Source: Methylocystis sp. (GTDB lineage: Bacteria; Pseudomonadota; Alphaproteobacteria; Rhizobiales; Beijerinckiaceae). From it: DNA of 24,283 nucleotides. A program made the position numbers and the translations under genes. Positions 642 through 23,972 of this stretch are shown piece by piece. Under the pieces are notes generated by a model. The model worked only from the letters and a program-made list of their open reading frames with translations, did no database searches and had not been told where the DNA came from. The stretch covers positions 1 through 24,283 of the forward strand of contig JALHNR010000015.1 in assembly GCA_022843525.1 (NCBI GenBank). Direction: 5' to 3'. The number at the start of each line of letters is the position of its first letter. Within the stretch, counting starts at the first letter, position 1.

Positions 642-1619
642 TTGGCTTCCGCGATCATTCGCATTGTTCTCTTAACGAGCGCCCTGGCGCTTGCAATAGG
701 CGCGCCGCAGCTGCGCGCCGAACCTGCGACGCCCATCAAGGGGACCGCCTATGTGACCTCGTGGTTCGGCGGCGTCGTTTCCGTTATAGATCTCGCATCA
801 GGCGCACTGAAGAAGAAAATCCCAGTCGGCATCCACAATCATAACGTCACGCTGCGTCCCGATCAGAAACAAGCTTGGGTCACGAACAACAACGCGGGAA
901 CCCTATCCATCATCGATACGCAAGCAAATAGCGTGATCAAGTCGCTGCCAACAGGAAAGGGTCCGCGACACATCTTTTTCAGCGCCGATGGCAAGGAAGC
1001 ATACGTTACGAACGAGTTCGACGACCGGGTGGAAATTTTTGACGCGCAGGCGGGTGCATCGCTTGGCGTCGTCAAGGCGGGCTCGATGCCGCATTTCGCG
1101 CTCGCTTCAGGCGACAGGCTTTTCGTCTCGAATTTCGGCGGCGGCGACGTGACGGTGCTCTCACGCGCAAAACGCCAGGCGCTCGCGACGATCGCTGTCG
1201 GAACGGGGCCGCTGGGCCAAGGCGCGACCAAGGACGGCAAGCGCGTCTATGTCGCCTGTCACAACGCCAATCACGTCGCCGTAATCGACGCCGAAAGCCT
1301 TCGGCGGATAGCGGATGTCGAGACCGATGCGGGCCCGGTGCAAGTCACGGTCGCACCAAATCAGACCTTCGCTTATGTCGCTAATGACGGGGCGGGCACG
1401 GTGCAGAAAATCGACCTTGCCGTGAACAAAGTCGTCAAAACGATCTCCATAGCGCCGGACGCGGGCAGTCACGGCGTCGGCTTCGCCGGCGACGGTCGCT
1501 GGCTCCTCATCACCAATACGGGAGCCAACAGCCTCTCGATCTTCGACACGCAGACGGATGAGATTGTGAAGACAATCTCCGTTCCGACAGCGCCTGAAGG
1601 CGTTGCGGTCCGGCGTTGA
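642..1619 (+). CDS. Secreted YVTN-family 7-bladed beta-propeller repeat protein
   Basis: An N-terminal signal peptide (MASAIIRIVLLTSALALAIGAPQLRA) is followed by seven roughly 40-aa repeats. Each repeat has the YVTN signature: AYVTS, AWVTNNNAGTLSIID, AYVTNEFDDRVEIFD, LFVSNFGGGDVTVL, VYVACHNANHVAVID, AYVANDGAGTVQKID, LLITNTGANSLSIFD. An AAGGAG Shine-Dalgarno sequence sits 8 nt upstream of the ATG, and the TGA stop is at 1617. Confidence 0.75.
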   Translation: MASAIIRIVLLTSALALAIGAPQLRAEPATPIKGTAYVTSWFGGVVSVIDLASGALKKKIPVGIHNHNVTLRPDQKQAWVTNNNAGTLSIIDTQANSVIKSLPTGKGPRHIFFSADGKEAYVTNEFDDRVEIFDAQAGASLGVVKAGSMPHFALASGDRLFVSNFGGGDVTVLSRAKRQALATIAVGTGPLGQGATKDGKRVYVACHNANHVAVIDAESLRRIADVETDAGPVQVTVAPNQTFAYVANDGAGTVQKIDLAVNKVVKTISIAPDAGSHGVGFAGDGRWLLITNTGANSLSIFDTQTDEIVKTISVPTAPEGVAVRR

Positions 1620-1906
1620 AAAGCATCTTTGTTGCGAAACGGGGGAGACGCTCGCAATTCGATGGCGCCAGACTGCCCGAATCAGTCTTGTTCTCTTTAG
1701 CTATAACGGCGCTTCGAAATTCCACGGACTATCGTCCGTGCCGCGGGCGTCGTTTAGCAGCTTTCCCTGCCCGCAGCGGATCAGAGACTTAGTTGCGCCG
1801 CAAAAAATCCCAGCCGTTCATGAGGATGGCATTTCCCTCAAGTGTTGCTACATTTGGCTGCGGTACGCGTTTGTCCCGCACCCGCGTTAATTTCGCCTGA
1901 GCCGTG

Positions 1907-2608
1907 ATGGAAATTATGCAACGATCTAATGCAGAGTGGCTGACGGCGCTTCAGGAGGGCGGTCGAGACCAACAGTTAGCGCTTGCGGACCTTCGAGCGC
2001 GACTGCTTGCGGCAATTCGGGCCTATTTGGCGAAAGGCTACGCCACGCAAGAATCAACGCGTTCAGATGAAGCGCAGCACCTTGCTGAAGACTGCGCACA
2101 AGAGGCCATTCTCATTATACAATCAAAACTTGGAGACTTTCGCGGCGAAAGCCGCTTTATGACTTGGGCTTATTCAATCGCAATCAGAGTCGTGCTCGGA
2201 GAGCTGCGCCGCCGTCGCTGGCGAGAAGCTACGATCGAGCGCGCTCAGCTTGGACAGACTTTGCCGGCTTGGCCGATTCAAGAACCGGGGCCGGAGCGCA
2301 GTCTACAGCAGCGCGAAGCGTGGACTCTACTGGCGCGACTTATCGGCGCCAAGCTTACTCCCTTGCAACGGACTGCACTTGTCGCTCACGCTTTTCAGGG
2401 AATGCCCTTGGACGAGGTCGCCGAATGGTTGGGTTCTAATCGGAATAGTCTTTACAAACTCATCCACGATGCGCGTAAACGGCTTAAGCAGGCTTTGCTC
2501 GAAGAAGGCGTGACGCACAAAGATCTTATTGCCGTGTTTGACGAGCCAAAATCGGGAACCCATCTCCATTCGGAGGGTAAGACTTCCTCCGTTCAACGCA
2601 TCTTATAA
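1907..2608 (+). CDS. ECF-family RNA polymerase sigma-70 factor
   Basis: Region 2-like (DCAQEAILIIQSKL..F.G.S.F.TWAYSIAIRV) and region 4-like (LTPLQRTALVAHAFQGMPLDEVAEWLG.NRNSLYKLIHDARKRLK) sequences are both present. The size and architecture are typical of ECF sigma factors. The start could be the GTG at 1904 or the ATG at 1907 or 1916. Confidence 0.8.
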   Translation: MEIMQRSNAEWLTALQEGGRDQQLALADLRARLLAAIRAYLAKGYATQESTRSDEAQHLAEDCAQEAILIIQSKLGDFRGESRFMTWAYSIAIRVVLGELRRRRWREATIERAQLGQTLPAWPIQEPGPERSLQQREAWTLLARLIGAKLTPLQRTALVAHAFQGMPLDEVAEWLGSNRNSLYKLIHDARKRLKQALLEEGVTHKDLIAVFDEPKSGTHLHSEGKTSSVQRIL

Positions 2609-2614
2609 TCAGTC

Positions 2615-2875
2615 GTGCCGGAACCCGACATGAAACACAAAGACTTTACCCGCCTCATTGACACCGTCTTCGCCGCTAAGAGCGGAGAGGAGATGCTGTG
2701 CACGGAATATTTTGATGAACTTCCACGTTACGTCGATATTGAGGCATCCGGTCAGGACGCCGGAGCCTTATTGCCCGAGGTTAAACACCATATGCATCAG
2801 TGCCCCGAGTGCGAAGAGGTTTATCTCGCCCTTCTGAGACTCGTGAACGCAGAAAAAACTTTTCCTTCGAGGTAA
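2615..2875 (+). CDS. Small zinc-binding (ZAS-type) anti-sigma factor
   Basis: This 86-aa ORF lies immediately downstream of the ECF sigma gene, 6 nt after its stop. It carries a C-x27-H-x3-C-x2-C arrangement (MLCTEY ... HHMHQCPEC) that matches the RsrA/ChrR ZAS zinc motif. It has no transmembrane segment, so it is a soluble anti-sigma. Confidence 0.6.
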   Translation: MPEPDMKHKDFTRLIDTVFAAKSGEEMLCTEYFDELPRYVDIEASGQDAGALLPEVKHHMHQCPECEEVYLALLRLVNAEKTFPSR

Positions 2876-2987
2876 GACCTCAGAATTCCGTCGCATCTAA
2901 GTCGTATCGGATCGAACTGGTTGGCGCGCGCGATCGAATCGATCGCCGGCATTGTCCCCGGTTCTCCGCTCGAAGGAGTGTGATGCG

Positions 2988-3965
2988 ATGCTAAGAACCT
3001 GGGCGCAGTTGGGGATTTCACGTTCGTTCGCGTTTTTGCTCATGTGGCCAGGCGCACTTCTCGCCGCTAGCGCAGCCTCTGCCGCCGACCAACATTTGAT
3101 CACGCTCAAAGCAAGCGCAATGCCGTCGGGTCAGCTGGCCTATGAGATGGTCAGTCACAAGGTCAAATCCTCCACAGGAAAGGAAAGCGACCTTATGGAG
3201 CGGTATGCGAGCGGTCCTACCATCCCTGGTCCCACGCTCGTCATGAAAGAGGGGGACGTCGCTGAGGTGACTCTTCAACATGGGATCGCCGACTCGGCTT
3301 TGCCGGTCAGCATCCATGTCCACGGCGTGCACTTCAAGATCGACAGCGATGGCACCATGAAGGTTTTGAATGGCGTCGCCGACGAAGCTGCGTTCCCAGA
3401 CAAACCTTACACATACAAATGGACGGCCGCGCCTGGAACGGCAGGCACGTGGGCCTATCACGATCATGCATTCGGCAATCCGATGCTCGGAGCCGAGGAC
3501 AAGGGGCTGTTCGGTACGCTCATCATCAATCCGGCGAGCGGGAAGGTTCCTGCGCTCATCGATGGCAAGATCGTCGACGTTGATCTTGCCGATGTGAAAC
3601 GCGAATTCATTATTTGGATGCATGAAACGACCTTTTGGGGCCAGGAGCTCAATCATATCATCGAGGGCGGCAAGGAGATTCCGTTATGGACTAATCCGAC
3701 CGTCGGTGCGCGCCTGGGCGAAAAGGTTCGCTTCCACGTCATGGGGCTTGGCACCGCGTTCCATACTTTCCATCTCCATGCGCATCGCTGGATCGAGCCC
3801 GGAGCAACCGCCGCCGTTGACACCGTCAACATTGGTCCAATCAGCCGCACCTCGTTCATCGTGAAGGCCGGCGAGGGTGTTGGCCCCGGCGACTGGCACT
3901 ACCACTGTCACGTTATCCAACACATGCAGTCTGGGATGATGGGTGATTTCCGCGTCATCGAATGA
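2988..3965 (+). CDS. Secreted two-domain multicopper oxidase (2dMCO)
   Basis: All four canonical MCO copper motifs appear in order: HVHGVH, WAYHDH, HTFHLHAH and HYHCHVIQHMQSGMM (the HCH-x3-H-x4-M motif carrying the T1 Cys). The protein is about 325 aa, so it has two cupredoxin domains rather than three. A signal peptide (MLRTWAQLGISRSFAFLLMWPGALLAASAASAA) is present, and an AAGGAG Shine-Dalgarno sits 10 nt upstream of the ATG at 2988. Confidence 0.8.
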   Translation: MLRTWAQLGISRSFAFLLMWPGALLAASAASAADQHLITLKASAMPSGQLAYEMVSHKVKSSTGKESDLMERYASGPTIPGPTLVMKEGDVAEVTLQHGIADSALPVSIHVHGVHFKIDSDGTMKVLNGVADEAAFPDKPYTYKWTAAPGTAGTWAYHDHAFGNPMLGAEDKGLFGTLIINPASGKVPALIDGKIVDVDLADVKREFIIWMHETTFWGQELNHIIEGGKEIPLWTNPTVGARLGEKVRFHVMGLGTAFHTFHLHAHRWIEPGATAAVDTVNIGPISRTSFIVKAGEGVGPGDWHYHCHVIQHMQSGMMGDFRVIE

Positions 3966-3992
3966 TCAATGACGAACGGGGGAGTTAAAGGC

Positions 3993-5834
3993 ATGAACCA
4001 CGCAACAATCATGAACCGCGTATCCTTTCTGACGTTGGCCGTGGCGACGACCTCGCTCGCTGCGTCGCTGTCGGCGCAGGCGAAAGACGCCGTGAAATCT
4101 GACGACGTTATCATCAGCCGCCCCGGCGTCCTACCGTCGGCCGTGCTGGAGATGACCGACGAGCCCGGCAAATGGTTCAAGGATCCCAAGAGCGGCGGCT
4201 CGCTCGTTGTGGTGAAGCCTGGCGAGGCGGTGCTCATCAAGATGACGGACACCAATACGGATCACACCATCACCAGTCTTGCCTGGCAGCCGGGCGCGGA
4301 CAAATTCCCGGTCGATCAGGAGAAGCCGTCGAACGCCAGCGTCACGCAGACCTTCGACAAACCGGGGCTCTATGTCTTCACCTGCAAGGTTCATCCCTAC
4401 ATGTTCGGCGCCGTTGTCGTCGACGATCCGAAGACGGAAGGGCTGGACATCGGCGGCGAATTGCAGCTCGTGACCGGCGCCAAAGTTCCGACGACAAGCG
4501 ACATCGCCAAGAAGCTGCTGCGCACCTTCTTCGTCGCCACGACGCCGGCGCTATGGCGCGACTATCGGCAGCCGAAGTGGGAGGTGAAGCTTCCCGATCT
4601 CGGACTCAATCTCGGCGGCGCGCAGATCAATCTGAGCGCGCTCAGCCTCTCGGCGCCGAACACGCTGCTGACGCCCCAGACGCCCGGCGTCGGCGAGGTC
4701 TGGGTCAACACGCAGTTTGAAGGCGTGAGCGGCAAGACGAAGTTCGGAACGGCGACGCAAATCGACGCGACGGACTGGACGCTCAAGAAAAAAGTCAAGG
4801 GCGTCGAGCAGAATATGAACAATCCCCACAATATGTGGCCCGATCCGACATATAAATACATTTATCAGACGGAATGGTTCGACAAGCGGCTGACCACCTT
4901 TGACCGCGAGAGCGGCAAAGTTCTTAACACACAGGTCGTTGGACAAAATCCGTCTCATGTGATGACGAGCCCGATAACCGGCATGCTCTATGTCGCCATC
5001 AATGGCGAGGACCGCGTGGCGAAACTGTCGCCTGGCGAATTCCCTTCGGCGATGGGCAACATTAATGTCGGCTCGCATTCCGGCCCGCACGGCCATCACC
5101 TCACCGACGACGGCAAATATATGATGACGCCGAACGCGCTGGCGGGAAGCGTTACCGTCGTTGATCTCGCGACCGAGAAAGCGACGGAAATTCCGACCGG
5201 CGGCGTTATCCCGATCGCGATCTGGAGCGACATGAACCATAAGGGCTATGCCGCCAATCTGCTCGGCACGCCCCCCGCCATGCTCTCCTCATTGACGGTG
5301 ATCGACATTGACAACAAGAAGAAGGTCAAGGACATCGACCTCGCTGCCGATTACGATCCGATCAGCGGCGCGCACAAGGGCGAAGCTTATGGCCTGCTTC
5401 CGATCCAGACCCCGGTGAGCCCTGACGGCAAATACGTCGTTACGGCGAACACGTTGAGCGCCACGGTCACGATCGTCGATGTGAAGACGGACAAGGTGGT
5501 GAAAAGCCTGCCCTGCGAAGCAGGCTGCCACGGCGTCAACTTCGGACACAAGAAGGGAGGCGGCTATTACGCCTATGTGGCGAGCAAATTCGCCAATGAC
5601 TTGATCGTTATCGACATGGATAAGCTCGAAGTTGTAGGCCGCATTCTGCTCGCGGATTCTAAGGACGGTCAGATCAACGCGCATAACGGCATGGGTGGAC
5701 AGGGCGTGTTGCCCTTGCCGATCGTCGAGCGGGGCATGCTTGCGCCCACGCTAAAACTCGCGGGAACAGGCAAGTTGAGCGCCGAAGTCGAGGGATGGCT
5801 CAAGCTTCTAACCAAGGAGCAACGCGGCAACTGA
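3993..5834 (+). CDS. Secreted fusion protein: N-terminal type-1 (amicyanin/pseudoazurin-like) cupredoxin plus C-terminal YVTN beta-propeller
   Basis: A signal peptide (MNHATIMNRVSFLTLAVATTSLAASLSAQA) leads a cupredoxin domain with His (DHTITS) ... FTCKVHPYMFGAVVV. This is a C-x2-H-x2-M blue-copper site. About 420 aa follow, carrying YVTN repeats (LYVAINGEDRVAKL, YMMTPNALAGSVTVVDL, YVVTANTLSATVTIVDV, AYVASKFANDLIVIDM) and several His-rich loops. A GGGGGAG Shine-Dalgarno precedes the ATG at 3993. Confidence 0.7.
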   Translation: MNHATIMNRVSFLTLAVATTSLAASLSAQAKDAVKSDDVIISRPGVLPSAVLEMTDEPGKWFKDPKSGGSLVVVKPGEAVLIKMTDTNTDHTITSLAWQPGADKFPVDQEKPSNASVTQTFDKPGLYVFTCKVHPYMFGAVVVDDPKTEGLDIGGELQLVTGAKVPTTSDIAKKLLRTFFVATTPALWRDYRQPKWEVKLPDLGLNLGGAQINLSALSLSAPNTLLTPQTPGVGEVWVNTQFEGVSGKTKFGTATQIDATDWTLKKKVKGVEQNMNNPHNMWPDPTYKYIYQTEWFDKRLTTFDRESGKVLNTQVVGQNPSHVMTSPITGMLYVAINGEDRVAKLSPGEFPSAMGNINVGSHSGPHGHHLTDDGKYMMTPNALAGSVTVVDLATEKATEIPTGGVIPIAIWSDMNHKGYAANLLGTPPAMLSSLTVIDIDNKKKVKDIDLAADYDPISGAHKGEAYGLLPIQTPVSPDGKYVVTANTLSATVTIVDVKTDKVVKSLPCEAGCHGVNFGHKKGGGYYAYVASKFANDLIVIDMDKLEVVGRILLADSKDGQINAHNGMGGQGVLPLPIVERGMLAPTLKLAGTGKLSAEVEGWLKLLTKEQRGN

Positions 5835-5945
5835 ACCATTGCAATTCAGCTCCGATGGATAGCCCCGAGCAGGGCTTCCATCGGGGTGATCAGTTGTTAC
5901 CGCAACAGACGCAGCACTCGCCGAATAATGTTAGGAGAAACGCGA

Positions 5946-6632
5946 ATGATCGAGCGTCAAGCCAACAAGACAGAACATCTGGTTTCGGCCCATGCAGATC
6001 GATTTCGTGACGGCCCGAGTCGTTTAATGGGTTTGGACAACAACTTTAGCGGAGTCCGAAGGTCGAAGCGTACCCAGGCTGAAGCTGAAGCGGCTGTGCG
6101 GGTTCTTATCGAATGGGCAGGCGACGATCCGAACCGCGAAGGTTTGATCGATACGCCTGAGCGGGTGGCGCGTTCTTATCGCGAATTGTTCGCTGGCTAC
6201 GCCGCCGATCCTCGCGAATATCTCAAGCGCACGTTCGAAGAAGTGGGCGGTTATGACGAGCTGGTCGTATTGAAGAACATCCGCGTCGTTACTTTTTGCG
6301 AACATCACATGCTGCCGGTGATCGGACGCGCGCATGTCGGTTACCTGCCGACAAACCGGGTCGTGGGAATCTCCAAACTGGCGCGGGTCGTGCACGGATT
6401 CGCGCGTCGATTACAGATTCAGGAGAAGCTAACCGCTGAGATCGCCGAAGCCATCCAGGAAATTCTCGAGCCGCAAGGAGTAGGAGTGGTCGTCGAGGCC
6501 GAACACAGTTGCATGACCTTGCGTGGCGTGAACACGCTCGGATCCACATTGACCACTAGCCGGTTACTCGGCGTAATCCGCGACGACGCCCGCTCACGAG
6601 AGGAATTCCTCGGCATGGTGCGCCGAGCCTAG
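5946..6632 (+). CDS. folE: GTP cyclohydrolase I (FolE type I)
   Basis: FolE signature stretches are present: [29 protein letters not shown] (the CEHH zinc site), GISKLARVV and QIQEKLT. An AGGAGAAAC Shine-Dalgarno precedes the ATG at 5946. The ORF's upstream extension to 5886 is probably not translated. Confidence 0.85.
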
Positions 6633-7018: not shown

Positions 7019-7057
7019 CGGCGACTCGGGAACTTTCACAGGGTGCTTTGCTTTTTG

Positions 7058-9409
7058 ATGCGCAGCGCCTGCCGGTTCGCTGCTGAGTTTCAGGAGGGCG
7101 TCGTGGAAAGCGCGCGTAAACTCTGGATCACGCTCATCGCCCTGTTGGTGCTCTCCTTTGCCGTGCTTCTGCTCATCGGCCGGGAAATAAGCGTCAAGGC
7201 GCCGCCTTTGCCCGAGCGCGTCGTTACGGAAACAGGACGCACGGTCTATACCCGTGCTGACATCGAGCGCGGGCGTCAGGTCTGGCAGTCCATCGGCGGC
7301 ATGCAGCTCGGCTCCGTCTGGGGCCATGGCGGCTACGTCGCGCCAGACTGGACCGCCGACTGGCAGCACCGAGAACTCGTCGCCATCCTGGACGCCTGGG
7401 CGCGCCGCGAGTTCGCGGCCGGCCGCTACGCTGATCTCAGCGAGGAGCAGCAGAGTTCTCTGCGGGGACGGCTGCGCCCGATGATGAGGCGAAACACCTT
7501 CGATCCGAAAACTGGGACAATTACTGTTTCTGAGGAGCGCGCTCAGGCGATCGACCTCGTCTCGAGCCACTATGAGAGCCTGTTCGGCGACGATCCGCGC
7601 AGTGCGGAACTTCGCGAGAACTACGCAATGAAGAACGGCACTGTCGACGACGCCGAGCATCGGCGGGCGCTAGGCGCCTTCTTCTGGTGGACCGCGTGGG
7701 CCGCGACCACGGAGCGGCCGGGAAGCCACGTCACCTACACCAACAACTGGCCGAGCGAACCGCTGGTCGACAACCGCCCGCCTGCGACCACCTTCATCTG
7801 GTCTGCGTTCAGCGTGGTATTCCTGCTTGCCGGCATCGGCCTGCTCGGCTGGCACCGCGCCGTCAGTCATGCACACGGCGCCGAGACGTGCGATGTGCCC
7901 GCGCGTGATCCGATGCGCAACGTAAGGGTCACGCCGTCCATGCGCGCGACCGCCAAATATTTTTGGGTGCTTCTTGCCCTGTTTCTCGTCCAGATCCTGT
8001 TCGGCGCCATAAGCGCCCATTACCAGGTCGAGGGGCAGCTGTTTTACGGCTACCCGATGGCGGAGATCCTCCCCTATTCGATCACCCGCACCTGGCACAC
8101 GCAATTGGCCGTGCTGTGGATCGCCACCGCCTGGCTCGGCACTGGGCTCTACATGGCGCCGGCGATTTCCGGGTACGAGCCCAAGTTCCAGGCGCTCGGC
8201 GTCAATGTGCTCTGGATCTGCTTGCTGATCATTGTGGTCGGCGCCTTCGCGGGCCAATGGCTCGCGGTCATGCAACGGCTGGGATTGGAACACAATTTCT
8301 GGTTCGGGCATCAGGGCTGGGAGTATGCCGATATCGGGCGTTTCTGGCAGTGGTTCCTTTTTATCGGCCTGCTGCTGTGGCTCTCCCTCGTCGGCCGCGC
8401 CTTGTGGCCGGCGCTACTGGCAAAAACTGAGTCACGCTCGATCGTCGCTCTTTTCTTCCTCTCGACGGTCGCAATTGGCCTGTTCTACGGCGCGGGGCTG
8501 ATGTGGAACGAGCATACGCATCTGTCGATGGTCGAATATTGGCGGTGGTGGCTGGTTCACTTGTGGGTGGAAGGGTTTTTCGAGGTGTTCGCCACCGCGG
8601 TCGTCGCCTTCCTGTTCACCCGCCTCGGCCTGGTCGCAGTCAAGCCGGCAACTTCGGCGGTGCTGTTCGCGACGATCGTCTTTATGGCCGGCGGCGTGAT
8701 CGGCACGCTCCATCATCTCTATTTCGCCGGCACTCCGATGTCGGTGTTGGCGCTTGGCGCCAGTTTCTCCGCGCTCGAAGTCGTGCCGCTCGCCTATATC
8801 GGCTTCGAGGCCTATGAGCATTGGCGGTTCTGCGGCGCCACGCCCTGGATGCAGCGCTATAAATGGCCCGTGCTGTTCTTCATCGCGGTCTCCTTCTGGA
8901 ATCTGGTGGGAGCCGGTCTGTTCGGTTTCCTGATCAACCCGCCGCTCTCGCTCTATTACATGCAGGGGCTCAACCTGACACCGCTGCACGGCCACACGGC
9001 GCTGTTCGGCGTCTATGGGATGCTCGGCATCGGCCTCGTGTTGTTCTGCCTGCGCGGAATGATGCCCGAACTCGTCTGGAACGAGAAGATCCTCAGCATC
9101 AGCTTCTGGTGCTTCAACGTGGGGCTGGGGATGATGGCGTTGTTCACGCTCCTGCCGCTCGGCACGCTGCAACTCCTTGCCGCGATCAATGAAGGTTATT
9201 GGTACGCCCGCTCTGAGCAGTTCATGCAGCAGCCGATCGTCGATCTTCTGGTATGGATGCGCGTGCCGGGCGACACGGTCTTTTCGATAGGCGCATTGGC
9301 CTTCGCCTGGTTCGTTGTCAGCCTGTGGCTCCGGCCGCGCCGCCAGCCTCATGAAGTGGAGCAGGAGGACAGGGAACTGGAGGCGGGACCGGCGAAGCGT
9401 GCGGCGTGA
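7058..9409 (+). CDS. norB: Quinol-dependent nitric-oxide reductase, single-subunit large NorB (qNOR/NorZ)
   Basis: The length is about 770 aa, as in qNorB. It has the N-terminal NorC-like periplasmic extension without a CXXCH haem motif. A heme-copper oxidase core with the His ligands follows: HLWVEGFFEVFATA, GTLHHLYFAG and FHQLDL-equivalents. Many transmembrane segments are present. The N-terminus aligns to the qNorB consensus: KLWITL, APPLPERVV, GGMQLGSVWGHGGYVAPDWTADW, TYTNNWPSEPL. The start is uncertain between the ATG at 7058 and the GTG at 7103; an AGGAGG Shine-Dalgarno lies just upstream of the latter. Confidence 0.9.
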   Translation: MRSACRFAAEFQEGVVESARKLWITLIALLVLSFAVLLLIGREISVKAPPLPERVVTETGRTVYTRADIERGRQVWQSIGGMQLGSVWGHGGYVAPDWTADWQHRELVAILDAWARREFAAGRYADLSEEQQSSLRGRLRPMMRRNTFDPKTGTITVSEERAQAIDLVSSHYESLFGDDPRSAELRENYAMKNGTVDDAEHRRALGAFFWWTAWAATTERPGSHVTYTNNWPSEPLVDNRPPATTFIWSAFSVVFLLAGIGLLGWHRAVSHAHGAETCDVPARDPMRNVRVTPSMRATAKYFWVLLALFLVQILFGAISAHYQVEGQLFYGYPMAEILPYSITRTWHTQLAVLWIATAWLGTGLYMAPAISGYEPKFQALGVNVLWICLLIIVVGAFAGQWLAVMQRLGLEHNFWFGHQGWEYADIGRFWQWFLFIGLLLWLSLVGRALWPALLAKTESRSIVALFFLSTVAIGLFYGAGLMWNEHTHLSMVEYWRWWLVHLWVEGFFEVFATAVVAFLFTRLGLVAVKPATSAVLFATIVFMAGGVIGTLHHLYFAGTPMSVLALGASFSALEVVPLAYIGFEAYEHWRFCGATPWMQRYKWPVLFFIAVSFWNLVGAGLFGFLINPPLSLYYMQGLNLTPLHGHTALFGVYGMLGIGLVLFCLRGMMPELVWNEKILSISFWCFNVGLGMMALFTLLPLGTLQLLAAINEGYWYARSEQFMQQPIVDLLVWMRVPGDTVFSIGALAFAWFVVSLWLRPRRQPHEVEQEDRELEAGPAKRAA

Positions 9410-9861: not shown

Positions 9862-11070
9862 TTACGTCGTTGGATGCAAGCGCTTCGTCGTCAACATCCC
9901 GAAATAGAGCAGCACGAAGAGCCCGTACGCCAAGCTCCACATGCCCCCGGCGGCGGCGATCGCAGCAAAGTAATACGCGCCCGTAAAAGGGGCGCCAATG
10001 CGCAGGATGGCCGCAAATGTTATGGCGATGTAGATCGCGGCCGTTCTCTGATCTGCGACGAGCGGGCGCCCGGTGTGGCCGCGCGTTGCACGAGTCATCA
10101 CCGCGAGCGTCATTGTTCCGATGGCGCCGACGGTGAGGGCATGCAGAGGCGCTGCAGAATCCGTGGCCCAGAATAGTTTGTTGCCGCCCATGAGCAGGAA
10201 GCCCAAGGGAACCCAGCCATATCCCAGATGCAGCACGAAGAGCATCGGTTCCGCCCGCGCGCTGACGCCGCGCCAGCGGATAAGACGTAGAAAGAGCGCC
10301 GCCCCGGCGATAATCAGGAGACCCGCCGTAGGCCCCGCGTCAGGGAACGCGGCCCAGGCGATGAGCGCCACAAGCGTCGCCGCCAGCGCGAAACGATCGA
10401 AAGCGCCGAAAGGCGCCGGCTCCACTTCAGCTGGCGAATTCTTCGCGAGCCAGTTGCGGGTGAAGCTCGGCGTGATGCGCCCCCCGATGATGGCGATGAG
10501 CATGACGAGGGTCGCGACGCCGACGCGGGCCCCGATGGCGCCCGTTGCGGCAAGGCCGATCGCTTCGAGATGCGTGAGCAAATTCCCGATAAAGAGAAGC
10601 GCAAGAGCGGCCACCATGGGCAAGTTGCGCCAGTTCCGCCCCGTGGCGATCTCGCGCGCGACAACGAAGATAAAGACCGCCGGGAAAGCGAGGTCGAGCG
10701 CCGCAGAGACGAGCGCAGGCGCACTATTTGAAGTCAGGACGGCGATGCGCCCCAGCAGCCAGAGAGCGACGAGGCCGGCGAGCGGCGCGCCTTGTAAGGG
10801 CAGTCGACCGGTCCAGTTTGGAATGGCCGTCAGCAAGAATCCCGCGACGACGGCGCCGCCAAAACCGAAGGCCATTTCATGCGCGTGCCAGAGAGAGGGC
10901 GCGAAGCGTGTCGGCAGTTCGGCCGCCGCCTCCAGATAGGCGATGGAGAGCGGCAGCCCGACAGCGGCCCAGAGCGCGGCAAAAAGGAAGAAGGGGCGGA
11001 AACCCGCTGAAAGAAAGATCGCCACAGGGTTTTGACTCGCCTGAGCGCGATATCGCGGAATTGGAGGCAT
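9862..11070 (-). CDS. nnrS: NnrS family heme-copper membrane protein (NO-response)
   Basis: The 402-aa protein is polytopic with about 12 transmembrane segments. It carries the NnrS hallmark N-terminus GFRPFFLFAALWAAV ... SLWHAHEMAFGFGGAVVAGFLLTAIPNWTG. It is convergent with the norB cluster. Confidence 0.85.
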   Translation of the reverse strand: MPPIPRYRAQASQNPVAIFLSAGFRPFFLFAALWAAVGLPLSIAYLEAAAELPTRFAPSLWHAHEMAFGFGGAVVAGFLLTAIPNWTGRLPLQGAPLAGLVALWLLGRIAVLTSNSAPALVSAALDLAFPAVFIFVVAREIATGRNWRNLPMVAALALLFIGNLLTHLEAIGLAATGAIGARVGVATLVMLIAIIGGRITPSFTRNWLAKNSPAEVEPAPFGAFDRFALAATLVALIAWAAFPDAGPTAGLLIIAGAALFLRLIRWRGVSARAEPMLFVLHLGYGWVPLGFLLMGGNKLFWATDSAAPLHALTVGAIGTMTLAVMTRATRGHTGRPLVADQRTAAIYIAITFAAILRIGAPFTGAYYFAAIAAAGGMWSLAYGLFVLLYFGMLTTKRLHPTT

Positions 11071-11084: not shown

Positions 11085-11688
11085 TTGGAATTGATGATGG
11101 GCTGGCGCTCGGTCACTAACGCACACATCGAGCGCGCAGGTCGCGAGCCTCGCGTTAGAAGCCAGCGGAATGTCACGGAGGGGAGGGGAAGATCAATAGG
11201 CCTTCTCTTGCGACACCATTCCTTCTTCTACGCGGATTCCCCGCAGATTGCGAAGGCGTTGCGAGGAAAGCGTCGCGCGCCACCGGCGTGGGTTGCGCTC
11301 GGGGCGTTCCTCGCCCTTGTGACCGCGACGACATGGATATCGACGAGCTCTTCCGCGAACCGCCGCGGGCGGCTGAGCGATAGTGGCCGAATTCGGTAAC
11401 GCGATGGCCAAGCCGAACGCGCGTCACTGCCACTCGTGGTCAAATCGCGGCGCTCCCTGATCAGTGGTGCAGGATCCGTGCAACCTCATGATGGCGCTCC
11501 GGCCAGCGCGACAAGCATATCGACTCGGTCGTCACGAGCTCCATCAGCTGCGCCTCGGTAAAATCCTCTGTCGCTGCTGGCCTTTCAGGAATTACGAAAC
11601 ACCGCGCCGTCCCGCTGCTGTCCCACACCCTGATCTCCGTTTCCTCGGGCAGTGGACGCCAACCTCGGCGAGCACTTTCCGCGGCTCG

Positions 11689-11960
11689 CGGGCCGCGCGG
11701 GCGCGAAATACCGGATCGGCAATCCCAGCACCGGCCATGGGAAGCACGAGCAAAGCGAGCAGATGATCAGGTTGTGCACCTCGGGCGCGTTAGCGACGGC
11801 CCGCAGGTGCTCGCCCTCGGCGCCGGCCATTCCCTCGGGCAGGTCGAGTTTGGCAATTGCGGCCGGGGTGTCGGCCAGGAGCCGGGCCAAGAAGCCCGCG
11901 TCGGTCCACGCTCGCACGACGATCTTTCTTGCCGTTGAGCGGACGCGGTCCTGCGGATAC
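11689..11960 (-). pseudogene. Nitrile hydratase alpha-subunit-like remnant (N-terminus missing, C-terminus divergent)
   Basis: KIVVRAWTDAGFLARLLADTPAAIAKLDLPEGMAGAEGEHLRAVANAPEVHNLIICSLCSCFPWPVLGLP aligns to NHase alpha. It retains the metal-binding C(S/T)LCSC claw motif. The expected N-terminal roughly 80 aa are absent, and the frame is not alpha-like beyond GLPIRYF. Confidence 0.5.
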
Positions 11961-11972
11961 TTGAATGGCCGC

Positions 11973-12643
11973 TCATGCAGGTTCCTCCAAGTATATCTCG
12001 AACAGTTCGGCGTAAAGCGTCTGCGCGCCGGGTTCCGCGCGCGGACCCCACAATTCGGTCGGCGTGAACTCGACGATGTAGACGGGCATTGGATCGCCGA
12101 TGCCATCGCCAGTGTGCCAGAAGTAGACACAGTCGCCTTCGAGCACCTGCGCCACCGTGCCGCTCCGCCCCCGCAGATAGCCGGGCAGGCGAGTGTGCGC
12201 GCCAACTGGGACATTTGCGATCCGGACCCGCTGCCCGACGGCGAACTTCGAATGCGCGACGTCGCGCCGCGGGCTGTCGCCGTTACGTAGATATGCGATG
12301 ATCTGCTCGTCGATGGCTTCAGCCCGATCGGATCCCCTGGCCGAGCGCCGTCCGGCCTGGCCGCTTCGCCACGCAGTTAGCTTGTCCGCGAGGCTAATTC
12401 GTCCTCGCGCAGGTATCCTTGTCGACGAGGAATGGGGATGCCGCTGAGCCACTTCTCGTAGTAACGGAATTTGAAGTAGTCGAATGGATCCATCGCCTCG
12501 GCGCCAGCGCGCAGATCCGCCCATGTCCACATGTCGCGGAAGGCGGTCGGCACGTAGGCGATCGCGCAGGCCGGCACGGACGAGTCGAGATGGCCCGAGA
12601 GAGCCATCATCGCCACATAGATGCCGAATATCCGATTTCCCAC
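11973..12643 (-). pseudogene. Nitrile hydratase beta-subunit-like remnant, split by a frameshift
   Basis: The N-terminal piece (12377-12643: WTWADLRAGAEAMDPFDYFKFRYYEKWLSGI) sits in one frame. The C-terminal SH3-like piece (within 11973-12320: QRVRIANVPVGAHTRLPGYLRGRSGTVAQVLEGDCVYFWHTGDGIGDPMPVYIVEFTPTELWGP) sits in another. Both resemble NHase beta, and the frame changes near 12330-12420. Confidence 0.5.
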
Positions 12644-12817
12644 TGCCTCGGCAGGCTGGTTCAGAAAAAAGGGTCAATTCGGATCTGGAGCGCTTTTCCG
12701 ACGTTGTCCAAAATAGGCTCAGAGTTGTGGAAGGCAAAGGCCGCAACACGCCGACGGTGGAATCGGAGGATCAGGGACGACGCGCGCGGAAGATGCGGAG
12801 CGGCGGCGAATGAGCGC

Positions 12818-18689: not shown

Positions 18690-19310
18690 TCAAGCTCGGG
18701 ATTTGAAGCTCGGCGTGATGCGGCCCCCGATGACGGCGATGAGCATGACGAGGGTCGCGACGCCGACGCGGGCCCCCAAGGTGCCCATAGCGTCAAGGCC
18801 CATCGCTTCGAGATGCGTGAGCAAATTCCCGATGAAGAGAAGCGCGAGAGCGGCAACCATGGGTAAGTTGCGCCAGTTCCGCCCCGTGGCGATCTCGCGC
18901 GCGACAACGAAGATAAAGACAGTCGGGAAAGCGAGATCGAGCGCCGCGGAGAAAAGCGCAGGCGTGCTATTCGAAGTCAGGACGGCGATGCGCCCAAGCA
19001 GCCAGAGAGCGACGAGTCCGGTGAGGGGCGCGCCTTGTAAGGACAGCCGACCAGTCCAGTTTGGAATAGCCGTCAGCAAAAAGCCCGCGACGACCGCGCC
19101 GCCAAAACCGAAGGCCATTTCATGCGCGTGCCAGAGAGAGGGCGGGAAGCGTGTCGGCAGTTCGGCCGTCTCCAGATAGGCGATGGAGAGCGGCAGCCCC
19201 ACGGCGGCCCAGAGTGCGGCAAAGAGAAAGAACGGACGGAATCCCGCTGAAAGAAAGATCGCCAGAGGGTTTTGACTCGCCTGAGCGCGACATCGCTGAA
19301 TCGGAGGCAT
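18690..19310 (-). pseudogene. nnrS: Truncated second copy of nnrS (N-terminal roughly 203 aa only)
   Basis: The protein is near-identical to the NnrS N-terminus: MPPIQRCRAQASQNPLAIFLSAGFRPFFLFAALWAAV ... WHAHEMAFGFGG ... GGRITPSF. It then diverges and stops after KSRA. The nucleotide homology to 10460-11084 is evident by eye. The remaining about 200 codons are absent. Confidence 0.7.
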
Positions 19311-20223
19311 CGCTGACTTCCCCGGAATGAACGCTCCGCGCCATCTAATGAATTTACTCGGTTCTTTCCTACTTCCTGTTGCGGCGGTCGCTACACAGCA
19401 AGCAGACGCGGCCTCCTTGTAATTTGTCCCCGAGCCAAGGGATCGGCTCGAGATGGAGACCTTTGCCCGAATCGCGCAGCGTGGGTAACGATACATCGAA
19501 GAGGGGTCTGCGTCATTTTACAGGATTTGCATTGCCAAAGCGGTCTTCTGCATCTCGATAGCGCCTGACAAAGAAATCGAATTTGGGCTCGGGCACGGAG
19601 TGGCCGAAACCATCACCCTCCGCCGCATCGCTCTGTAGTGTGTCGCGTGAATGACTTCGGCGAGACGGATTTCATGGATCCGCTCCATCAAGGCGCTGAA
19701 TTTCGGCTTCCTTCTTGAGCCAGAAGCGCCCGATTTGCTCGGCGATAATACGCTCGATCTCGGGCACGAGCCGAATGCGCCTTCCGGCGTTCCTCGCTGT
19801 TGTTGTGCGAGACTCGAAATAAGTCGTGTGCACAGAAAACGCGACGCCATACGAAAGTAAGGTTGACCTTGGGATATCGAATCGCCTGAGGCGGCTCTCG
19901 AAACAGGTCACGCCCGCTGGCGACCGCCGTTACAACGCACGGATTTCATCATTTTGCCCAGAGACATAAACCTCGACGCCGTCGAGACGCGAAACGATCG
20001 GTCGGATGCTTTCGGCGGGCAGCATTGAAAAGGCCGTAGAAAGCGCATCGGCGATCGTCGCGGTCTGAGCGATCCATTCCGCTTTACAGCCTGTGAAGAT
20101 GAAGCGTCGCTACCTCGCCGACGGCGCGATCACTTGCGCCACGCCGGTCATGGCGGCCGAAGAGCTGGGCGCACGTCGACTTGTCGTGCTGCCGACCGGT
20201 CACGCCTGCATGCAGGTTCGTGA

Positions 20224-22168: not shown

Positions 22169-22917
22169 ATGAAGGCGCTCGTCGTGAACAATGAGAAGGG
22201 CGGCGTCGGCAAGAGCACGATCGCCGTGCATCTCGCCTGGTATTTTGCAGAGCGCGGTAAACGCGTTCTTTTCCTCGACCTCGATCCACAGAGCAATGGC
22301 ACAACGACGCTTGCGGCGCATGCTGTTGGGATCGACGCCGCTGCCCTCTTTGCGCGCCCGGTCGCCGTTCCATCGATGGCGAGCGCTGGCATTCGGGTCC
22401 TGGGCGGCAGCGCCGCCTTGCGCGGCATCGTCGCCGTAGACGGCAAGCTAATCGAACAATTCCGCTCCAATATTAAAGACGCGTCGCGCGCCTATGACAT
22501 TGCGGTCATCGACACGCCGCCAACCTTCGGCGTGCGCAATCTCGCGGCGTTGATCGCAGGTCAGTTCGTGCTGGCGTCGATCGACCTCGACGACTACGCC
22601 TCGAGGGCATTGAAACGCTGCTCAAGCACATCCTCGGCGTGAAGCAGAAATACAATTCCGGCCTCGAGATCCTCGGACTGATCCCCAATTGGCTGCAGAC
22701 AACCTCGCCGCACCAGCGGGAGAATTTGAAGAGCCTCGTCCAGAGGTTCGGCACGAAATACCTGTTCGACGGCGTGATCCCGCAACGCTCGTAGATCGGC
22801 GAGGCGTTGGCGGAGAAAAAGCCGGTCTGGAACTTACCGAAGACAGCGGCGCGCGAGGCCGGCCGCGAGATGCGCATCGTATTCGACAAGCTCGCGACGA
22901 AAATGGAGATGGCATGA
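22169..22917 (+). pseudogene. parA: ParA/Soj-family partition ATPase carrying a 1-nt frameshift and an in-frame TAG
   Basis: The N-terminus MKALVVNNEKGGVGKSTIAVHLA has the deviant Walker A. After DLDDY the ParA sequence continues only in the -1 frame: LEGIETLLKHILGVKQKYNSGLEILGLIPNWLQ...VIPQRS. A TAG at 22792-22794 follows, then IGEALAEKKPVWNL, which matches the canonical VIPRNVRLSEAPSHGKPV. The frame switch is consistent with a missing C in the CCC run near 22600. Confidence 0.7.
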
Positions 22918-23972
22918 GCTACGCTCGCAAACTCGATGATGTCGCGTTGCTGCTGGACGAACTCGAGGGCCTCGAATCGTCTGCCTCGAGCGGCAAGCCT
23001 CTCGAAATCCCGCTTTCGTCAATCGAGGAAGACCCAGATCAGCCGCGGCGCGCTTTCGACGCCGAGACGCTGGAGGAGCTCGCGGCCTCAATCCGGGAAC
23101 GCGGCGTCCTTCAACCGATCGGCCTCACTCCAGTGGGTCTCAATGGAATGCACCGAACCGTCTTCGGGGCGCGGCGCTTTCGGGCGGCGCAACTCGCTGG
23201 CCGCGCGACGATCGCGGCGTTCATTCATTCGGGAGAGGCCAGCGACCCTTACGACCAGATGATCGAGAATATCCAGTGGGACGACGTTTGGGCCGCGGAT
23301 ATCGCCGCATTCATTGCTTCCCGCCTTGCGGCGGGCGAGAAGCAGAAGGACATCGCGCTGCGGCTCGGCAAGGACAAGAGCTATATCGCCATGTATGCGG
23401 CTGTCGCGCAAATGGCGCCCGTGCTGCGAGAGCGGTTAACGACCTCGCCGATCCGCGCCGTCTATGAATTGCATCAGATGTGGAGAAAGTTTCCGCGGGC
23501 CGTCGAGGCGTTTTGCGCGCAACATGACTCGTTCACCCGCGTACAAGTGGTCGCATTTTGCGAAGGTCTGAGCGGTCGGCCGCCGCGGACTGATGATTCG
23601 CCGCTGAGTGACGAACTGCATGACGCAGCCAATCCACATGACGACGGGGCCTTGCCGGGCGCGGATCGAAAGTTGAATTGCGCTCCGCAGGGACGGAAGC
23701 GTCGAACTCGGTCGGCTAGATCCATCCGGATGCGCTCGCGACGAAGCGCGGCGCCATTCGACACGACCAGAGCGACGGGCGTCCGAAGTGGCGCTGGCGA
23801 CGTTACGTGTCGAGCATGGGCAGCGTTACGGGCGGCTGTTGTTGGAGTGCGGATCGAGCAAGAGCGAGGCGCACGGTCTGGTCTTCTCTTCGAAGACGAC
23901 GGCACGGTCGAGGATGCGCCTCTCGCTGCGTTGCGGCTCGTGTCGCTGAAGATAGGCCTAGCGAATTCGTGA
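22914..23972 (+). CDS. parB: ParB/RepB-family partition protein
   Basis: The ATG overlaps the parA stop (ATGA). The ParB box is present: EIPLSSIEEDPDQPRRAFDAETLEELAASIRERGVLQPIG ... FGARRFRAAQLAG. An HTH-like middle region follows. The C-terminal roughly 120 aa are Arg/Ala-rich and of low complexity. Confidence 0.65.
   Translation: MSYARKLDDVALLLDELEGLESSASSGKPLEIPLSSIEEDPDQPRRAFDAETLEELAASIRERGVLQPIGLTPVGLNGMHRTVFGARRFRAAQLAGRATIAAFIHSGEASDPYDQMIENIQWDDVWAADIAAFIASRLAAGEKQKDIALRLGKDKSYIAMYAAVAQMAPVLRERLTTSPIRAVYELHQMWRKFPRAVEAFCAQHDSFTRVQVVAFCEGLSGRPPRTDDSPLSDELHDAANPHDDGALPGADRKLNCAPQGRKRRTRSARSIRMRSRRSAAPFDTTRATGVRSGAGDVTCRAWAALRAAVVGVRIEQERGARSGLLFEDDGTVEDAPLAALRLVSLKIGLANS

Follow-up and report, generated by a model that had tools for sequence, protein, structure and literature searches.

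Exported cupredoxin–propeller proteins of methanotrophs and ammonia oxidisers carry a conserved histidine ring and are genetically linked to a two-domain multicopper oxidase

What does an exported protein do that joins a type-1 (T1) copper cupredoxin to a beta-propeller, and with which partner does it exchange electrons? The question is raised by a gene at 3993–5834 of a 24,283-nucleotide stretch of DNA from Methylocystis sp. (contig JALHNR010000015.1, assembly GCA_022843525.1), which is called the window here. A first-pass annotation had proposed that the gene product (the target below) is a new propeller-type copper enzyme with a built-in electron-entry domain and the reversed domain order of nitrous oxide reductase (NosZ). 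The explanation favoured here, with about an even chance of being correct, is an extended multicopper oxidase (MCO) in which a propeller metal site exchanges electrons via a T1 copper with an O2-reducing laccase. Full-text literature searches found no paper on this cupredoxin–propeller family. Its members are labelled in databases as hypothetical, YVTN propeller, YncE or ‘multicopper oxidase type 3’.

The gene is real. The open reading frame (ORF) has a GGGGGAG Shine–Dalgarno sequence 8 nt 5' of start 3993, and the start assigned by the annotation pipeline PGAP in a Methylocystis orthologue (WP_245435095.1, 98% identical, 613 aa, ‘hypothetical protein’) is the equivalent of 3993. Residues are numbered on the 621-aa ORF from 3969, in which start 3993 is Met9. 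The gene and the parts of its product are:

3969..5834, + strand: target gene, exported cupredoxin–propeller protein; ORF of 621 aa, 613 aa from the likely start 3993
3993..4082, + strand: Sec-type signal peptide, MNHATIMNRVSFLTLAVATTSLAASLSAQA followed by KD, read from the sequence with a predicted cleavage site
4137..4448, + strand: type-1 (blue) copper cupredoxin domain with an amicyanin-type loop C-x2-H-x2-M, from ligands, Foldseek and PDB profile match
4263–4265, 4383–4385, 4392–4394 and 4401–4403, + strand: codons of the T1 ligands H99, C139, H142 and M145
4449..4673, + strand: linker subdomain between cupredoxin and propeller, helix 178–191 and short strands (DSSP of both models, pLDDT >90)
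4674..5738, + strand: seven-bladed YVTN-type beta-propeller with velcro closure, the C-terminal strand joining three N-terminal strands
5739..5834, + strand: C-terminal helical tail and stop codon, three short helices (DSSP)

The putative Sec signal ends AQA/KD after residue 38, and residues 1–52 are disordered in the AlphaFold model of the whole protein, which has a pLDDT of 90. Orthologues share 64–98% identity in methanotrophs and 44–49% in Nitrososphaera. The tail segment TLKLAGTGKLSAEVE is missing from the Nitrososphaera-type sequences in the alignment.

The T1 cupredoxin is as firmly established as sequence and fold evidence allow. The target was aligned with 20 and with 62 homologues from methanotrophs and Nitrososphaera-type archaea, with identities down to 44%. 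The loop FTCKVHPYM is present; H99, C139 and H142 are invariant in the 62 bacterial and archaeal homologues and M145 is kept in at least 90%. Residues 53–235 were modelled separately (pLDDT 94). Pseudoazurin, amicyanin and plastocyanin led the Foldseek matches of this model (E 2.6e-6 and weaker, prob 1.0), and the top 50 were these proteins and the cupredoxins of CuA and NirK. The best sequence match in a PDB profile search was pseudoazurin 2ux6 (E 3e-4), engineered with an amicyanin loop, which agrees with the C-x2-H-x2-M spacing of the target. Standard models overlook the domain: it scored 17.0 bits with Pfam Copper-bind (cut-off 21.2), 18.0 bits with TIGR02375 (109.85) and 18.3 bits with TIGR02657 (110.2), which explains the ‘hypothetical’ annotation. 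The domain has the fold and the site of the amicyanin/pseudoazurin class, with a His...Cys-x2-His-x2-Met loop of amicyanin length, and stands outside those equivalog families. Unlike these free carriers, it is part of a 613-aa protein. The textbook T1 site and the likeness to amicyanin and pseudoazurin, both noticed in the first-pass annotation, are thus borne out.

The propeller exceeded the cut-offs of Pfam PF21783 and TIGR02276 and has a seven-bladed fold, which places it among YVTN/YncE-like proteins. Its invariant residues include five His (287, 330, 374, 376 and 521) and two Gln (480 and 578). These residues were placed on the DSSP strands of the model to obtain the blade register, in which each blade opens with its innermost strand.

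4827–4829, 4956–4958, 5088–5090 and 5094–5096, + strand: codons of ring residues H287, H330, H374 and H376
5406–5408, 5529–5531 and 5700–5702, + strand: codons of ring residues Q480, H521 and Q578
5514–5516 and 5526–5528, + strand: codons of the paired C516 and C520
Blade 1: P-H287-N-M-W at the start of the innermost strand, ring residue H287
Blade 2: P-S-H330-V at the start of the innermost strand, ring residue H330
Blade 3: P-H374-G-H376 at the start of the innermost strand, ring residues H374 and H376
Blade 4: P-I-A at the start of the innermost strand, no ring residue
Blade 5: P-I-Q480 at the start of the innermost strand, ring residue Q480
Blade 6: C520-H521-G at the start of the innermost strand, ring residue H521
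Blade 7: G-Q578-G at the start of the innermost strand, ring residue Q578

In standard propeller topology, the starts of the innermost strands encircle the central channel. The invariant His and Gln should therefore ring one mouth of this channel. Such a ring points to a metal site, at which the protein would probably bind its metal. H287, H330, H374, H521 and Q480 persist to about 30% identity (one representative per 50%-identity cluster). H376 is retained within the closer subfamily only, and distant relatives have four invariant propeller His. The motifs IYQTEWFD, GGGYYAYV and GMGGQG near the ring are extremely conserved across domains of life.

The first-pass annotation had pointed to four His-rich loops, three of which contain invariant His. 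In the NPHNMW loop this is H287. H374 and H376 are invariant in the GSHSGPHGHH loop and H521 in the CEAGCHGVNFGHKK loop, but the other His of both loops are not; the His of QINAHNG is not conserved either. The ring residues H330 (PSHVM), Q480 and Q578 had been overlooked. Scattering of the His over the propeller surface, which would have spoken against a metal site, is not seen: according to DSSP, they stand at equivalent places, the start of the innermost strand, in blades 1, 2, 3 and 6. The closest structures in the fold search were the YVTN proteins 1l0q, YncE and BtuG, and the top PDB match was the archaeal S-layer YVTN domain 1l0q. It shares 19–21% identity and has P-x-G where the target family has the ring His, so the objection that the target is merely an S-layer protein does not apply.

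At least 90% of the aligned sequences have both C516 and C520; other members have replaced the two jointly (A/A, T/T), which suggests a disulfide pair. They form the only C-x3-C of the target. In gammaproteobacterial orthologues, blade 6 reads C-x3-C-x3-H-x2-M. This string was rejected as a CuA site, because it belongs to a strand of the propeller and the joint replacement of the two Cys speaks for a disulfide; moreover, the window protein has N and H in place of the non-conserved His and Met.

A candidate partner for the electron exchange is encoded directly upstream, by a gene missed in the first-pass annotation:

2952..3965, + strand: partner gene, two-domain MCO of the small laccase (SLAC) type; likely start 2988, 326 aa (337 aa from 2952)

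The MCO gene ends 27 nt before the likely start of the target. Its product has the Pfam domains Cu-oxidase_3 and Cu-oxidase_2, and its nearest matches are small laccases of actinobacteria (3t9w, E 4e-32). It retains the four copper motifs in full: HVH, HDH, HTFHLH and HCHVIQHMQSGM at residues 110, 158, 259 and 306 represent the HxH, HxH, HxxHxH and HCHxxxHxxxxM motifs of the SLAC type. The likeness to the Streptomyces-type enzymes, with T1 in domain 2, extends to these motifs and the overall match. SLACs act alone on phenolics, whereas the window MCO is genetically locked to a cupredoxin–propeller protein and elsewhere fused with one. Neighbourhoods were counted in the 80 best loci. Among the methanotroph loci with upstream DNA, the MCO is directly upstream of the target relative in 53 of 53. 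These belong to alpha- and gammaproteobacterial methanotrophs and include Methylocystis, Methylocella, Methylocaldum, Methylococcus, Methylomicrobium, Methylotuvimicrobium, Methylobacter, Methylohalobius and Methyloglobulus. Given the MCO partner, the cupredoxin is no more likely to admit electrons than to release them.

In a scan of one genome per GTDB species, relatives of the target were present in 562 species. An exhaustive search of representatives yielded 2061 relatives at E ≤1e-3, many of them 650–1100 aa long; in these, Pfam identified an N-terminal two-domain MCO. Single-chain MCO–cupredoxin–propeller fusions of 893–1130 aa occur in Nitrosopumilus adriaticus, Nitrosocosmicus franklandus and Nitrososphaeraceae metagenome-assembled genomes, and also in several Nitrosomonas and in Nitrosospira. 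These fusions of ammonia-oxidising archaea (AOA) and bacteria (AOB) keep all four T1 ligands and every ring residue, and the window MCO shares 50% identity with the MCO portion of the Nitrosopumilus fusions. Adjacency in some lineages and fusion in others is strong evidence that MCO and target work together.

In Nitrosospira sp. Nsp2, Nitrosomonas sp. and Nitrosocosmicus, the fusion is preceded by a second MCO-like gene (334–355 aa). According to the alignment, the upstream protein still has the two HxH motifs of domain 1 but no longer HxxHxH and HCH...M. The reverse is true of the fusion, whose MCO part has lost the domain-1 motifs and retains HTFHLHAH and HCHxxxHMxxGM.

L088 7010–10934: split-ligand MCO pair of Nitrosospira sp. 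Nsp2
L089 6948–10751: split-ligand MCO pair of Nitrosomonas sp.
L080 2516–6364: split-ligand MCO pair of Ca. Nitrosocosmicus

In two-domain MCOs, neighbouring subunits build the trinuclear cluster jointly at their interface, one contributing domain 1 and the other domain 2. With complementary ligands on two proteins of this design, the cluster can assemble only at a hetero-interface. As far as the sequences tell, the split ligands imply an obligate heteromer and an O2-reducing site maintained by selection. They also set the family apart from SLACs. Both AOB split-ligand loci have a NarL/GerE response regulator upstream.

Distant relatives carry other modules. They too have an N-terminal amicyanin- or pseudoazurin-like domain, to which some (P0215 and P0218) add an N-terminal cytochrome c domain. 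The metagenomic representative P0161 (565 aa) has a CuA domain, then a T1 cupredoxin (CEMHPYM) and then a His-ring propeller. Its CuA motif H84-x34-C119-x3-C123-x3-H127-x2-M130 is of the genuine NosZ/COX2 type, and the domain scored 72.7 bits to the C-terminal 100 positions of NosZ models. P0161 is the closest thing to the ‘inverted NosZ’ of the first-pass annotation. The constant core of the family is the T1 domain with the His-ring propeller; the outer redox partner varies between MCO, cytochrome c, CuA and none. One reading may fit all these layouts: a substrate-oxidising propeller would deliver electrons to O2 via the MCO, or to the respiratory chain via cytochrome c or CuA. The conserved core with swapped partners fits a catalytic propeller with a T1 relay.

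In this mechanism, the target would be the substrate-side module of an extended MCO. After Sec export, it would be located in the periplasm, in contact with the two-domain MCO of the small-laccase type. The mouth of the central channel would hold a metal centre, most likely of one to three Cu, with H287, H330, H374, H376 and H521 as ligands and Q480, Q578 and M289 nearby. A small periplasmic substrate would be oxidised at this centre. The electrons would pass to the T1 copper of the target (H99/C139/H142/M145), further to the T1 copper of the MCO and to the MCO trinuclear cluster, which would reduce O2 to water. The idea of a new propeller-type copper enzyme is therefore reasonable and strengthened by the ring and the MCO linkage, but electron entry through the cupredoxin is not favoured over electron exit.

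Several known systems follow parts of this design. The archaeal MCO4 Nmar_1354 (PDB 9CCK) combines a two-domain MCO with a pendant T1 cupredoxin, at 13.5 Å from the MCO T1 copper, and couples NH2OH oxidation (to HNO) to O2 reduction (PMC11761707). It is the nearest functional precedent, and by analogy the present system looks like the MCO4 design with a propeller added. Shared features are the two-domain MCO of the trimeric type and the extra T1 cupredoxin as a relay, in ammonia oxidisers; the fused relatives of the target have exactly the order MCO, then cupredoxin. In contrast to MCO4, a His-ringed propeller follows the cupredoxin, the window MCO is a separate polypeptide of a SLAC-like lineage, and the target family is not confined to archaea. 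9CCK was not among the 60 best PDB matches of the window MCO or of the Nitrosopumilus fusion, which does not place them within MCO4. A T1 copper relaying single electrons to or from a His-ligated catalytic metal is also the logic of the nitrite reductase NirK, and its C-terminal cupredoxin (6hbe) was found among the sequence and fold matches. The cytochrome cd1 NirS has an N-terminal electron-transfer domain followed by a propeller, which is catalytic in NirS. The target has neither the T2-site architecture of NirK nor haem d1, and NirS differs by its eight-bladed propeller and its cytochrome c domain.

The surroundings of the pair bear on its role. The window shares 96.8% identity over 7.6 kb with two Methylocystis rosea plasmids and has ParA/ParB-KorB genes at 22169–23972, so it is a methanotroph plasmid or a close relative of one. 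Neighbouring genes are:

642..1619, + strand: cupredoxin-less paralogue of the target, YncE-family propeller with signal peptide (325 aa; Pfam YNCE)
1904..2608, + strand: extracytoplasmic function (ECF) sigma factor upstream of the pair (Pfam Sigma70_r2/r4_2)
2615..2875, + strand: 86-aa ORF with an H-x3-C-x2-C motif (HMHQCPEC), a putative zinc-binding anti-sigma factor judged by its motif
5886..6632, + strand: GTP cyclohydrolase I (FolE), immediately 3' of the target (Pfam, 234 bits)
7043..9409, + strand: quinol-type nitric oxide reductase (qNor), intact with 788 aa (Pfam NorB_cytochrome_c-like and COX1)
9862..11070, − strand: NnrS, a membrane protein associated with NO stress (Pfam NnrS, 375 bits)
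L030 3841–4488, − strand: ArsR/HTH_5-type regulator, example from one of 16 gammaproteobacterial loci

The paralogue matches the target with a BLASTP E value of 5e-19. Its motifs HNHNV, GPRHIFF, PVQVTV and AGSHGVGF align with H287, H330, Q480 and H521. It keeps the same ring, and the island thus holds two members of a His-ring propeller superfamily. Twenty-three loci, mostly of alphaproteobacterial methanotrophs, have the ECF sigma factor and the small ORF in front of the pair. The small ORF has no Pfam match and no transmembrane segment; its counterpart in the M. rosea plasmid is a hypothetical coding sequence. Sixteen loci of gammaproteobacterial methanotrophs have, upstream of the MCO gene and divergent from it, a gene for an ArsR/HTH_5-type regulator of 215 aa whose C-terminal domain is MetOD1-like. 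FolE is downstream in 12 loci, only of the Methylocystis type. qNor is linked to the pair only in loci of the Methylocystis plasmid type. Two Cus/Czc RND systems and a FixH-family gene flank the plasmid island of Methylocystis.

Several observations weigh against an MCO-coupled oxidase of nitrogen compounds. Many relatives stand alone, with no MCO within 6–10 kb, including those of Nitrospira, Nitrososphaera gargensis, Acidobacteriota and Chloroflexota; the MCO is thus not needed by every member. Reductases typically take up electrons through CuA and cytochrome c modules, which distant relatives carry. Electrons passed straight to O2 conserve no energy, which suggests a detoxification or accessory route rather than a core energy pathway. 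The occurrence of stand-alone forms in Acidobacteriota and Chloroflexota also speaks against a core energy role, and the distribution within ammonia oxidisers looks patchy. The Cus/Czc metal-efflux systems on the Methylocystis island point to metals rather than nitrogen.

The main alternative, close to the first-pass annotation and considered unlikely, reverses the electron flow: the T1 cupredoxin would feed a propeller copper site that reduces N2O, NO or nitrite, as CuA feeds CuZ in NosZ and T1 feeds T2 in NirK, and the MCO would be a parallel or protective O2 scavenger. NosZ (clades I and II) and L-NosZ, the lactonase-type NosZ of clade III (He et al., Nature 2025, cited in PMC13477213), are likewise exported proteins with a seven-bladed propeller and a cupredoxin, and inner strands supply His to the central metal site of NosZ, as predicted for the target. 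L-NosZ (NF052460) is the best NCBIfam match of the target and the top model for most distant relatives (62–144 bits); the CuA domain of P0161 ahead of T1 and propeller, the cytochrome c domains of P0215 and P0218 and the vicinity of qNor and NnrS in the window point in the same direction. None of the scanned window genes is nosR, nosD, nosF, nosY or nosL, but this is a weak criterion, since clade III NosZ is reported without canonical nos accessory genes (PMC13477213). The scores of the NosZ models are an order of magnitude too low and no better than those of other YVTN families. The target reached 61.7 bits with L-NosZ (cut-off 700), matching only model positions 78–254 of 480, near hydrazine synthase beta (50 bits) and a PQQ-associated propeller family (49 bits), and 16.8 and 11.1 bits with TIGR04244 and TIGR04246 (cut-off 625). 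The 32 distant relatives scored 33–144 bits with L-NosZ, at best 143.5, and none attained its cut-off. NosZ was not in the top lists of the fold search. The CuZ site requires seven His, and the target has five invariant ones from four blades. Its cupredoxin is N-terminal with a single Cys, as in all close relatives a T1 site instead of the C-terminal binuclear CuA. The reversed order and the mononuclear site were thus correctly recognised from the start, and both argue against kinship with NosZ. The partner differs as well: fusion to an O2-reducing MCO with selected cluster ligands is hard to square with an O2-sensitive N2O-reducing site, and qNor and NnrS are linked to the pair in Methylocystis plasmid-type loci only. 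Thiocyanate dehydrogenase (TcDH), the other enzyme named for comparison, has a seven-bladed propeller with His-ligated multinuclear copper, oxidises a small substrate and passes the electrons to an external carrier; unlike the target, it has no built-in cupredoxin. No chain named thiocyanate dehydrogenase appeared at E ≤10 in single-sequence or profile searches of the PDB or in the top lists of the fold search. The only possible trace was a 40-residue profile match (E 0.2–0.3) to unnamed TAT-signal proteins. In these sequence and fold comparisons, specific kinship with NosZ or TcDH found no support; the likeness to NosZ is one of analogy, and that to TcDH probably too.

Copper or metal handling is another explanation with a low probability. 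The pair would oxidise Cu(I) (or Fe(II)/Mn(II)) in the periplasm or act in copper trafficking, with the His/Met ring as a site of metal binding or hand-over instead of a catalytic cofactor, and would serve the unusually high copper demand of organisms with copper membrane monooxygenases (CuMMO). The occurrence in methanotrophs, AOA, AOB and Nitrospira tracks copper demand equally well. The Cus/Czc systems and the FixH-family gene around the island, the ECF sigma factor with the Cys/His-motif ORF and the divergent ArsR-type regulators fit this role, and so do the archaeal MCO1 and MCO4, which show a response to Cu limitation and for which Cu(I) oxidation was proposed (PMC7785015). However, CopB/PcoB, CopC and CopD partners were absent from the window locus and from those related loci that were examined, cuprous oxidases of the CueO type work without an additional module, and a T1 relay with a deeply conserved ring (45–50% identity between archaea and bacteria) resembles an enzyme more than a chaperone. 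With Cu(I) as the substrate, this explanation merges with the extended MCO. The propeller could also be non-catalytic, which seems very unlikely: a YVTN scaffold or docking platform, comparable to S-layer YVTN proteins, YncE or the cobalamin-binding BtuG, with a structural ion or a ligand, for example a corrinoid, held by the ring, and with the T1 domain as the only redox-active part and a dedicated carrier of electrons for the MCO. It is consistent with the non-enzymatic YVTN proteins as closest structures, with the lack of a match to a known catalytic family and with the cobalt-transporter genes cbtA/cbtB beside the N. gargensis gene. The missing ring His of 1l0q contradict it, as do the extreme conservation of the ring and of its neighbouring motifs across domains of life and the persistent coupling of the propeller to four kinds of redox modules (T1, MCO, cytochrome c and CuA).

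For the extended MCO, the substrate can only be guessed from context. Hydroxylamine, HNO or NO, as a nitrogen intermediate from CuMMO chemistry, is preferred, followed by Cu(I) or another reduced metal. The guess is based on the carrier organisms: methanotrophs, AOA and AOB, and Nitrospira with stand-alone forms. A nitrogen substrate is favoured by the MCO4 precedent and by the linkage of the pair to intact qNor and NnrS in the window; a metal by the Cus/Czc flanks of the island, the metal-type regulators nearby and the high copper demand of the carriers. A possible lead comes from plasmid pBSC2-2 of Methylocystis sp. SC2, on which SC2p2_01190 (‘MCO type 3’), SC2p2_01200 (‘MCO type 1’) and folE2 are consecutive (I4EBB9, I4EBC0 and I4EBC1; PMC9600857 and its supplementary file 4). 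The three were upregulated 15-, 4.3- and 3.9-fold at 75 mM versus 1 mM NH4+ (log2FC 3.9, 2.1 and 2.0; PMC9600857). The order equals that of MCO, target and folE in the window; this is a lead only, as orthology is unconfirmed and pBSC2-2 was not noticed among the contigs that encode the Methylocystis protein.

In its boldest form, the proposal is a copper-only hydroxylamine, nitroxyl or NO oxidase common to methanotrophs, AOA and AOB, with a new His-ligated (multi)copper propeller centre, as a haem-free counterpart of hydroxylamine oxidoreductase (HAO). It is a speculation with a small chance of being right. To our knowledge, AOA are without the haem enzymes that bacteria use for hydroxylamine oxidation, and the responsible copper proteins have been an open question since the discovery of AOA. 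Methanotrophs must dispose of the hydroxylamine that methane monooxygenase forms from ammonia. If true, the proposal would offer a concrete candidate for the missing nitrogen-oxidising enzymology of AOA and for hydroxylamine detoxification in methanotrophs. The family is of interest for its copper modules with the deeply conserved His-ringed propeller, its genetic lock to an O2-reducing laccase and its concentration in CuMMO-using organisms. Even with a metal ion as substrate, a three-module electron path and a heteromeric laccase with split ligands would be new to MCO biochemistry. The system is directly testable, as tractable methanotrophs (Methylotuvimicrobium) carry a simple two-gene version.

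The neighbours of the stand-alone relatives were considered as a source of functional signals and gave none, reflecting lineage-specific synteny: radical SAM, DUF547 and glycosyltransferase genes in Nitrospira, cbtA/cbtB in N. gargensis and unrelated genes on a marine contig. GenBank describes the stand-alone N. gargensis homologue as ‘cupredoxin containing protein with WD40/YVTN repeat-like-containing domain’. At its locus (L001 9444–9946), it is divergent from cbtA/cbtB and upstream of a Rieske/NAD-binding oxidoreductase.

Within the target gene, the opposite-strand ORFs 4551–5240 and 5289–5684 were taken as high-GC shadow ORFs. Near-identical metagenomic contigs (L090–L093 6135–7842) have qNor divided into two annotated genes, of 218 and about 548 aa, and the gene table of the M. 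rosea plasmid lists no coding sequence for it, which suggests a frameshift or a pseudogene in these copies. A second NnrS at 18690–19496 (− strand) matches model positions 2–188 of 371 and is probably truncated. At 11585–12749 (− strand), overlapping ORFs match nitrile hydratase alpha (93.9 bits) and the C-terminal part of beta (101.9 bits). They overlap by about 240 nt, and one start is probably wrong. These ORFs may encode a nitrile hydratase, a thiocyanate-hydrolase-like enzyme or a precursor-peptide-type protein.

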